Positions 51,871 to 51,960 of a stretch of DNA of 64,000 nt are shown piece by piece. Position 1 is the stretch's first letter. Each line of letters begins with the position of its first letter. The stretch lies in contig CAZKVI010000003.1 in assembly GCA_964556185.1 (NCBI GenBank), positions 2,089-66,088 on the forward strand, in the 5' to 3' direction. Below the pieces are notes generated by a model. It saw only the letters and a program-made list of their open reading frames with translations, ran no database searches and was not told where the DNA came from. Made by a program: the position numbers and the translations under genes. The DNA comes from an uncultured Methanosarcinales archaeon. GTDB lineage: Archaea > Nanobdellota > Nanobdellia > Woesearchaeales > DSVV01.

Positions 51871-51960
51871 TTAGTATATAAAGTTTACGGTTTTACACGT
51901 AAACTAAGAAGTCGAAGACTTCTGTATCTTTCTATTTTAGTATATAAATTAGTATAATAT

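Follow-up and report, generated by a model that had tools for sequence, protein, structure and literature searches.

A double-hairpin interspersed repeat in a marine Woesearchaeota-like archaeon and its sister species

A 64,000-nucleotide (nt) stretch of contig CAZKVI010000003.1, hereafter the window, carries at positions 51882–51925 a pair of adjacent mini-hairpins that belongs to a family of such pairs dispersed through the window and through the DNA of a sister species. The family is real and statistically solid, and it files among the small palindromic interspersed repeats. With a probability of about 0.7, these pairs represent a non-autonomous interspersed repeat specific to the lineage and similar to the REP (repetitive extragenic palindromic) and RPE (Rickettsia palindromic) elements, mobilised in trans and then filtered by selection. 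An earlier note on this DNA had pointed to dispersed hairpins and read them either as possible relics of mobile elements of the IS200/IS605 type, recognised as single-stranded DNA, or as RNA processing or termination signals. All the hairpins that it quoted were located at their positions, and the mobile-element reading holds in its general form: the repeat is lineage-specific, shows insertion polymorphisms between the sister species and includes in-frame copies within genes. The word "relics" is probably wrong, since copies differ between species whose DNA is about 90% identical, which indicates recent activity.

Structure and covariation of the repeat unit

The repeat unit is 36–44 nt long, most commonly 39 nt, and consists of two mini-hairpins in a fixed order: hairpin 1 (hp1), 1–5 nt, hairpin 2 (hp2) and GT. 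The earlier remark that two hairpins usually sit side by side reflects this fixed module. The consensus of an alignment of 27 copies reads, on the top strand, (A)AA-CTTTCC-GNNA-GGAAAG-TA-AGAAGTC-GNNA-GACTTCT-GTA. The hp2 stem is near-invariant in sequence, hp1 is variable with compensatory changes, and the loops vary both in sequence and in length (3–8 nt across copies).

Paired cells make up 89.5% of the alignment versus 83.4% in shuffles, none of 500 shuffles reaching the observed value, and controls in which the alignment was slid gave 37–52% paired cells. The stem covariation that the earlier note had proposed to look for is thus present, in hp1 as well as in the inner pairs of hp2. For example, the hp1 pair between alignment columns 17 and 24 occurs as CG (13 copies), AU (4), UG (3) and GC (2). 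The two inner pairs of hp2 switch together from UA/CG to CG/UA and the five outer pairs never vary; an hp2 variant, AGAATTC/GAATTCT, is likewise compensatory. The same is seen when individual copies are compared. Those at 13577–13615 and 53152–53190 have 23 of 24 nt in common around hp1 and differ in hp2 by a compensating CT/AG versus TC/GA change, while the copies at 51882–51925 and 17086–17121 (minus strand) are collinear, their hp1 stems differing by a compensating G/C to C/G change. An identical 12-nt stem, GAAGTC/GACTTC, is found in three copies outside the gene of ribosomal protein P0. Rfam was searched at both gathering and permissive thresholds; its only matches, four tRNAs and a snoRNA-like one due to chance, are not at the hairpins.

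Abundance and distribution

The host of the window is a marine DPANN (Woesearchaeota-like) archaeon. The window has a G+C content of 31% and encodes, among others, archaeal EF-1alpha, S10, EF-2, L7Ae and ribosomal protein P0/L10, together with tRNA genes with long introns. The closest species-representative genomes are those of marine Nanoarchaeota/Woesearchaeota (DPANN), with EF-2 identities of at most 77%, and contigs identical to the window are present in several marine metagenomes. The sister species was reached through P0 homologues; its P0 is 92% identical and its DNA about 90% identical to the window, and the orthologous DNA amounts to about 23 kb.

GAAG and CTTC are common words in the window, with 400 and 384 occurrences. 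The simple motif GAAGYY-N3-5-RRCTTC occurs 5 times versus 0.20 expected, and none of 100 shuffles reached 5, so that the excess over shuffled sequence, named in the earlier note as one of the checks on its proposal, was found. A covariance model built from the 27 aligned copies (R1) was run against 248 kb of DNA of the lineage and 1.29 Mb from 80 other Woesearchaeota. Within the lineage it produced 45 matches at E < 0.01, corresponding after removal of duplicate contigs to 31 distinct copies of at least 32 bits. Six lie in the window (E = 6e-9 to 1.6e-4) and about 25 more in the sister species; the element is abundant in both. Among the 80 other Woesearchaeota there was no match at E ≤ 1, and the simple motif occurs there just twice.

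A metagenome scan with the hp2 pattern TAAGAAGTC-N3-5-GACTTCTGTA returned 42 loci, and the strict hp2 pattern is represented by 19 copies on 17 contigs from one metagenome, which belong to the sister species. Diverged versions, e.g., AGAAGACC-gaa-GGTCTTCT, are found in a more distant relative (L219, P0 68% identical), which also has module-like double hairpins in its P0 tail (10885–11092). The specific two-hairpin pattern had no matches in viral contigs, giving no sign of a viral vector, and the more than 120 singleton matches of the generic hp2 pattern to such contigs are chance matches and uninformative.

Insertion polymorphism between sister species

Comparison of the two species revealed clean filled and empty orthologous sites, from which it follows that the module spreads by insertion. 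The boundaries are unambiguous in two orthologue pairs. At the promoter of gene 17165, the site is empty in the sister, CCATTACA^TTTATATATGAAC, and the window carries 36 nt, TACAGAAGC-taac-GCTTCT-TA-CTTTAC-tgc-GTAAAG, exactly at the position marked ^, where they adjoin the TATA box on its 5' side. The sister carries instead, in the opposite orientation, an independent copy that abuts the TATA box of a divergent PIN gene. In the second pair, downstream of the 13901–14245 orthologue and upstream of the 14308 orthologue, it is the sister that has 39 additional nt, placed directly 5' of TTTRATAG, with the next start codon about 40 nt further on. Neither of these two precisely bounded junctions shows a target-site duplication.

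The intron of tRNA 48773–48897 contains a 39-nt copy in the sister and none in the window. The copies in the P0 tail of the window are not present in the sister P0, where the alignment is ambiguous, and the flagged copy at 51882–51925 is part of a 622-nt segment, including a mazE/parE-like operon, that is absent from the sister. At the position of this operon (51341–51843, minus strand; MazE/AbrB-like antitoxin and ParE-like toxin), the sister has 224 nt of unrelated sequence (L230 6757–6981).

Some copies are inserted in frame in coding sequences. In addition to P0, where 13 residues are encoded, these are a membrane protein (KLSERKVRSQKTSV) and an alpha/beta hydrolase (RFPKETKKSKKLLQ) of the sister, the latter copy being placed between LHYV and the LFFLHG motif; the open reading frame (ORF) 53136 of the window is probably another case. 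Altogether, the module has landed immediately 5' of TATA boxes or of T-rich tracts and within a tRNA intron; in proteins, its landing sites are in frame and in tolerant regions.

Two ideas about the insertion process were considered and rejected, the first of them for copy E (17086–17121). The arm of a hairpin at the S10 gene and arms resembling a transcription factor B recognition element (BRE) suggested that hp1 is copied from the target flank, but the empty site of the sister at gene 17165 has no GTAAAG arm. The 12-bp direct repeats TTAGTATATAAA around the flagged copy could be taken for a target duplication; the 12-mer is a TATA consensus, and it is not a duplication because it recurs at other promoters.

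Copies in the window

The flagged copy D (51882–51925, plus strand; model span 51879–51929) has the best score, 51.2 bits at E 6e-9, with a fold z-score of −4.0. It consists of hp1 AGTTTACG-gttttaca-CGTAAACT, A, hp2 AGAAGTC-gaa-GACTTCT and GT. It lies between the stop codon of gene 51961–52386 (minus strand) and the TATA box of the mazE/parE-like operon, and its top strand is antisense to both flanking genes.

Copy B (53152–53190, plus strand; span 53149–53194; 49.5 bits) is 39 nt long, ACTTTCC-gaa-GGAAAG CA AGAAGTC-gatga-GACTTCT GT, and is located at the 5' end of ORF 53136–54143. The ATG at 53178, where the public gene call begins, falls within the hp2 loop, and the copy is either translated, as NFPKESKKSMRLLW before a signal-peptide-like segment, or part of a 5' untranslated region. 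It is identical in the sister (46 of 46 nt, L230 8176–8221) against a background identity of about 92%. The CCGAAGG-type tip listed separately at 53153–53167 is simply the hp1 of this copy.

Copy A (13577–13615, plus strand; span 13574–13619; 40.4 bits) is 39 nt long and inserted in frame in the acidic tail of P0/L10 (gene 12588–13892), where it encodes the 13 residues. Directly 3' of it, an hp2-only hairpin, AGAAGTC-gcaga-GACTTCT, occupies 13625–13643 (plus strand). Copy G, overlooked by the earlier note, also lies in the P0 tail (13457–13492, plus strand; span 13453–13496; 36.1 bits) and reads AGTTGAC-aaa-GTCAAC GA AGAAGC-gcaa-GCTTCT GT. It is a weaker member of the family and may owe its sequence in part to a recurring EEAxAS peptide motif; a similar sequence is found at L259 6106–6148. 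The acidic Lys/Glu/Ala/Pro-rich tail of P0 is highly variable in length among Woesearchaeota, the whole protein ranging from about 285 to about 597 amino acids.

Copy E (17086–17121, span 17082–17124, minus strand; 49.1 bits) is the 36-nt insertion described above, directly 5' of the TATA box of gene 17165–19261 (plus strand). Its top strand is the minus strand of the window, CTTTAC-gca-GTAAAG TA AGAAGC-gtta-GCTTCT GTA. Copy C (28265–28293, plus strand; span 28258–28298; 32.3 bits; fold z = −3.2) is a GC-rich variant in which GGCC-gaaa-GGCT is followed by CGAAGTC-gaa-GACTTCG. The hairpin that the earlier note had quoted at 28277–28293 is present there, with an outer pair of C-G and not A-T as quoted.

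The description of all these hairpins as GC-enriched islands in AT-rich spacers does not apply to those at 13595 and 13625, which are within the P0 coding sequence, and probably not to that at 53170, in the N-terminal coding region or 5' untranslated region of its ORF. Neither 57425–57435 nor 36651–36663, proposed as related tips, belongs to the family: the model matched neither at E ≤ 1, both lack an AGAAG stem, and the fold at 36651 is no better than those of shuffles. An hp2-like hairpin without hp1, AGAAGTTC-aacaa-GAACTTCT, is located at 50130–50150 (fold z = −4.0) and conserved in the sister (L230 4735); it has no match to R1 and its membership of the family is uncertain.

Strand asymmetry and orientation

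Both stems are perfect palindromes, and what distinguishes the strands is therefore only the loops, the flanks and which hairpin comes first. On the strand reading hp1-hp2-GT (the top strand), 40 of 60 loops are of the form G..A (GAA, GTA, GCA, GTTA, GAAA and others), often as C-GNA-G, versus 3 of 60 on the other strand. The top strand folds better in 27 of 30 copies with RNA parameters and in 29 of 30 with DNA parameters. Counts of G-U versus A-C mismatches, which could have pointed to the functional strand, comprise too few imperfect pairs to discriminate.

The orientation of the element is non-random. The top strand is antisense to the neighbours in 15 of the 18 intergenic copies next to a gene end (an estimated binomial probability of about 0.008, two-sided), and all six copies in coding sequences or a tRNA intron are sense. 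The common arrangement in the direction of transcription is a stop codon, hp2, hp1, TTT, and then a T-rich tract or a TATA box; a strongly T-rich 3' flank was found in about 7 of 17 copies and a canonical TATA box after the TTT in at least 6, the next start codon often being 26–86 nt beyond the element. The promoter consensus GTAAASTTTATA, with 10 occurrences versus 2.1 expected, is matched by the element end GKAAAG-TTT. The promoter-like consensus GTAAA(C/G)TTTATA (BRE plus TATA), likewise at 10 occurrences versus 2.1 expected, was observed at 11857, 17115, 19860, 45081, 51877, 61771 and other positions. Start codons follow it about 35–45 nt downstream, as would fit 5' leaders that are short or absent.

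The S10 locus

Downstream of the gene of ribosomal protein S10, copy C forms the tip of a longer hairpin. The last 13 codons and the stop codon of this gene, at 28197–28235, are followed by a second copy at 28298–28337 (plus strand; 30 of 32 identical), and the 5 differences between the two S10 ends are all synonymous. Copy C is placed between them, and the spacer pairs with the second S10 end to give a long hairpin, with hp2 at its tip and the second S10 end as its 3' arm (z = −3.2). Between window and sister, one pair of this hairpin compensates from G-C to A-U via synonymous codon changes, and another changes from G-U to G-C. The sister has both "empty" haplotypes (L265 and L267), in which 38 nt without a copy separate the S10 stop codon from the next conserved gene, and "filled" haplotypes (L266 and L268), in which the first S10 end is followed by the spacer and the module, and these by the ancestral S10 end together with 10 nt of its old flank, a promoter and a 148-residue gene. 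The duplicate and hairpin structure travels with this adjacent gene, of 145 or 148 residues.

The intron-rich tRNAs of the window and a hairpin in a related genome (L016) suggested a bulge-helix-bulge intron, which was rejected. The fold of copy C has a symmetric 3x3 internal loop in place of two opposite-strand 3-nt bulges with a 4-bp helix between them and flanking exon pairing, and the other copies have no flank pairing. The tRNA-intron copy of the sister is an insertion into a pre-existing intron and not itself such an intron.

Proposed mechanism and alternative explanations

An enzyme acting in trans would recognise the hp2 stem in a folded single strand, most likely of DNA, much as in the REP/RAYT system or at IS200/IS605 ends. 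Folded-strand recognition is suggested by the conserved hp2 stem, the varying half-site spacing and the one-sided G..A (C-GNA-G) loops; the conservation of this stem with free loop length and compensating inner pairs argues for a folded strand and not a duplex operator. The one-sided loops lie on the usual template strand, which makes DNA more likely than mRNA, so that loop asymmetry and template-strand bias lend the single-stranded DNA idea indirect support. Selection would then filter the surviving insertions, and the orientation rule would most simply be a survival filter. Between genes, the hp2-hp1-TTT orientation would be acceptable, its GKAAAG-TTT end imitating the local BRE/TATA consensus and some copies then being followed by a T tract. 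Such copies may be harmless or useful as punctuation, by supplying a BRE-like element or adding termination. Within coding sequences, the tRNA intron and the S10 transcription unit, only the opposite orientation would be tolerated, because sense copies encode Lys/Glu/Ser-rich peptides and no T tract follows them.

Several points weigh against this proposal. Neither the Pfam scans of the window ORFs nor precomputed annotations show a transposase, in agreement with the earlier note, and the Pfam scans likewise revealed no TnpA, TnpB, RAYT, Y1-HUH or integrase gene. No transposase gene was found among 20 ORFs flanking sister copies either, and about 270 kb of lineage DNA gave no candidate when scanned with a crude HUH-Y motif. 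Only the two orthologue pairs have unambiguous filled and empty boundaries, the others being in low-complexity or rearranged sequence. The sister contigs were picked up by the motif itself, which biases their copy density, and the unbiased estimate, about 1 copy per 10 kb, comes from the window alone. Copy B is identical in both species, and the distant relative L219 has module-like sequences in its P0 tail, so some copies may be old and under host selection. The single-stranded DNA step, the BRE mimicry and the terminator effect are all steps that we infer.

A host-encoded RNA signal is an unlikely alternative: a sequence-specific protein-binding double hairpin marking transcript 3' ends, as a terminator or stabiliser, or processing sites, with copies arising by local duplication or gene conversion and not by transposition. 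Most intergenic copies lie from a few to about 40 nt from a stop codon in one orientation, and the T-rich tracts after about 7 of 17 follow in the direction of transcription. An hp2 stem that stays invariant as its loops vary would suit a protein that recognises it, copy B shows no difference between the species, the hairpin downstream of S10 has a compensatory pair, and bacterial terminator-like repeat families such as SPRITE are known (PMC10969869). However, the stabilising G..A loops of those intergenic copies are on the untranscribed strand, many copies lack a T tract, and copies in coding sequence, in a tRNA intron or between divergent promoters make no sense as 3'-end signals. The unrelated flanks and the discrete gains of 36–39 nt point to insertion and not to local duplication. 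Considerably less probable are recombination sites of an attC or att type for the insertion or exchange of gene cassettes. A module borders three gene-sized indels on one side (the mazE/parE operon, bordered by copy D, a 237-residue sister gene by L251 3602–3646, and the 145/148-residue gene with copy C), and the duplicated S10 3' end beside copy C resembles what is seen at integration sites. Nevertheless, the same 23 kb of orthologous sequence contains at least five further gene-sized indels that no module borders, which weakened the association. Modules also insert alone, there is no integrase nearby and no attC R/L box organisation, and the cases were noticed through the modules, which is an ascertainment bias.

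It is very improbable that the module is the duplex operator of a dimeric transcription factor, e.g., the adjacent AbrB/MazE-type antitoxin. Copies D, E and several in the sister abut TATA boxes, and copy D is upstream of a toxin-antitoxin operon of the autoregulated type. Against this, half-site spacing ranges over 3–8 nt and the inner positions of the stem vary only together with their pairing partners, as expected of a hairpin and not of a duplex dimer site; the downstream genes have no common function, copies are also found in coding sequence and a tRNA intron, and the sister has many copies yet no such operon. Hardly credible at all are chance palindromes produced by a GAAG/CTTC-rich coding composition biased to Glu, Lys and Ser. 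The two words are indeed abundant, the P0 tail is of low complexity, and peptides such as EAKAS are naturally palindromic in DNA. This explanation is refuted for the family as a whole by the 5 motifs observed versus 0.2 in shuffles, by the 12-nt stem identical in three non-P0 copies, and by a two-hairpin consensus found again at about 30 unrelated loci but not in relatives of equal base composition; it may apply only to the weakest P0-tail hairpins, 13457–13492 and 13625–13643.

Other observations

Two further kinds of hairpin were seen in the window. A GC-rich 35-nt hairpin at 57413–57447 (CCCGCAAACA...TGTTTGCGCGGG; z = −3.8), downstream of ORF 55390–57348, has no Rfam match. A second, AT-rich double-hairpin repeat with AAAAGTGATTAA... 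and AGTGTAAAATAA... palindromes is located at 43205–43300 and 50040–50118 (fold z of −8.2 and −7.2); only these two copies, and the sister orthologue of one, were found.

The intron-bearing tRNAs 48650–48763 and 48773–48897 are followed by a tRNA 3'-half-like piece at 48570–48640 (minus strand), whose T-loop is interrupted by a hairpin insert; a similar T-loop insert in the relative L016 (15440–15620) contains an hp2-like hairpin, AGAAGCT-acaa-AGCTTC. The intron of tRNA 48773–48897 carries box C/D-like motifs, GTGATGA ... GATGA.

At 29486–30367 (minus strand), this archaeal genome encodes a sigma-70 protein of bacterial type, complete with regions 1.2, 2, 3 and 4. The sister sigma-70 gene (L265 6122–7983) is present as two tandem copies in some haplotypes, and in some a LAGLIDADG endonuclease gene is nearby. 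In many related genomes (L016, L018, L020, L033, L053 and others) the EF-2 match extends over 2.6–3.2 kb compared with 2.17 kb for the query, which suggests inserts, possibly inteins, in the EF-2 gene.

Comparison with known repeat systems

Small interspersed palindromes are well known in bacteria, and DPANN genomes are usually thought to be streamlined. To our knowledge, such palindromes have hardly been described in archaea. We found no account of them in DPANN archaea, full-text searches on repeats and palindromes of DPANN or Woesearchaeota gave no description of the present family, and a 2025 survey of REP-like palindromes included Crenarchaeota and Euryarchaeota but not DPANN (PMC12306157). 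The present family is unusually small and simple, with two mini-hairpins in 39 nt; it is tolerated in frame in a ribosomal protein, and its end may be promoter-compatible. It offers a tractable system for studying how hairpin repeats move without an evident transposase, as well as strain-level markers for uncultured Woesearchaeota, and it is a caution for annotation, since short inserts specific to a lineage can be selfish DNA in DPANN and CPR (candidate phyla radiation) proteins.

REPs are short (20–40 nt), stable, species-specific palindromes with many copies, mainly downstream of genes and sometimes within them; they vary among close relatives and form superfamilies with a short conserved tag, GTAG or CGTC, by the hairpin (PMC3733652). 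The element is similar in its 36–44-nt unit, its 6 copies in 64 kb and 19 strict-pattern copies on 17 sister contigs, mostly intergenic, and in the GT(A/G) that follows hp2. However, its tag, GTA or GTG, is 3' of the hairpin and that of REPs is 5' (PMC3733652); GTAG occurs in about 5 of 30 copies, with a polarity opposite to that of REPs on the strand with the stable loops. In addition, the host is a DPANN archaeon, two distinct hairpins in fixed order replace a single imperfect palindrome or head-to-head dimers, the stems are perfect without a conserved mismatch, and no RAYT (Y1 HUH transposase) gene was found in the DNA scanned. The RPEs, like SPRITE and archaeal MITEs (miniature transposable elements with inverted repeats), have been reviewed (PMC10969869). 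They are palindromic repeats of an organism with a reduced genome that are inserted between genes and in frame in genes, including translation-related ones (PMC10969869, PMC3733652). In-frame copies of our element are found in the P0 tail, the sister membrane protein, the alpha/beta hydrolase and probably ORF 53136. RPEs are about 100–150 bp long compared with 39 nt here; there is no sequence similarity, no CGTC tag and no Rfam match at the sites, and coding copies are a minority, about 5 of 30.

PATEs (palindrome-associated transposable elements), derived from IS200/IS605 and defined in the haloarchaeon Haloquadratum, are archaeal, transposase-free for want of coding length and devoid of terminal inverted repeats, with hairpins near their ends and no target duplication (PMC3119063). 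Here the two hairpins make up the whole element, and the two precise junctions are likewise free of target duplication. PATEs are much longer and have ends in common with resident IS605/IS1341-type transposons, none of which was found in the lineage DNA at hand. Assignment to the MITEs was rejected, since hp1 and hp2 are distinct self-complementary units, so that the element does not have mutually inverted repeats at its left and right ends, and no target duplication is seen. SPRITE of Streptococcus pneumoniae is a similar interspersed hairpin repeat located after genes in a preferred orientation, sometimes with a T tract. In the present element the orientation is biased 15 to 3 and a strongly T-rich 3' flank follows about 7 of 17 copies, but fewer than half of the copies have a T tract and it is the non-transcribed strand that carries the stabilising loops. 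In archaea, termination needs no hairpin. An attC site of integrons is an imperfect palindrome of 57–141 nt with R''/L''...L'/R' boxes (GTTRRRY core), located 3' of cassettes that an integrase assembles in arrays; this identity was also rejected for a 39-nt unit of two perfect hairpins with no GTTRRRY core, arrays or integrase.

The metagenome scan also recovered about 11 copies of a 45-nt palindrome, CCCGTTAGAGAT-A-AGAAGTC-NNN-GACTTCT-GTA-ATCTCTAACGGG (family 2; loci L223, L224, L227, L235, L237, L238, L245, L254, L256 and L258). Its host is probably a CPR bacterium, because the contigs encode bacterial RpoA with an alpha-CTD, S4, S11, AlaRS and Fmt at a G+C content of 31–41%. The two families have in common the hp2 core with its flanks TA...GTA and an orientation that is sense in coding sequences or operons and antisense after gene ends. 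Near their N-termini, an fmt-like and a gpsA-like gene are each extended in frame by 15 codons (PVRNKKSKTSVISNG) from a copy of family 2; one copy is sense between S11 and S4, and one is antisense after a gene end. The differences are the bacterial host, the position of hp2 at the tip of one long palindrome without a separate hp1, and the ARA loops. By our estimate, about 10 random single matches to the hp2 pattern are expected and about that many were seen, but it is unlikely that a whole repeat family would match 19 specified bases by chance. The likeness may reflect common descent, horizontal transfer or convergence. It is a tentative and rather doubtful extension that the AGAAGTC/GACTTCT stem with its TA...GTA flanks is the site of one hairpin-binding enzyme or transposition system, common to DPANN and CPR by descent or transfer, which would spread 39–45-nt elements able to insert in frame in essential genes and in tRNA introns, with a BRE-like end that keeps promoters working. 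If the core common to the archaeal and CPR repeats is not coincidental, it would point to a mobile system that crosses domains.

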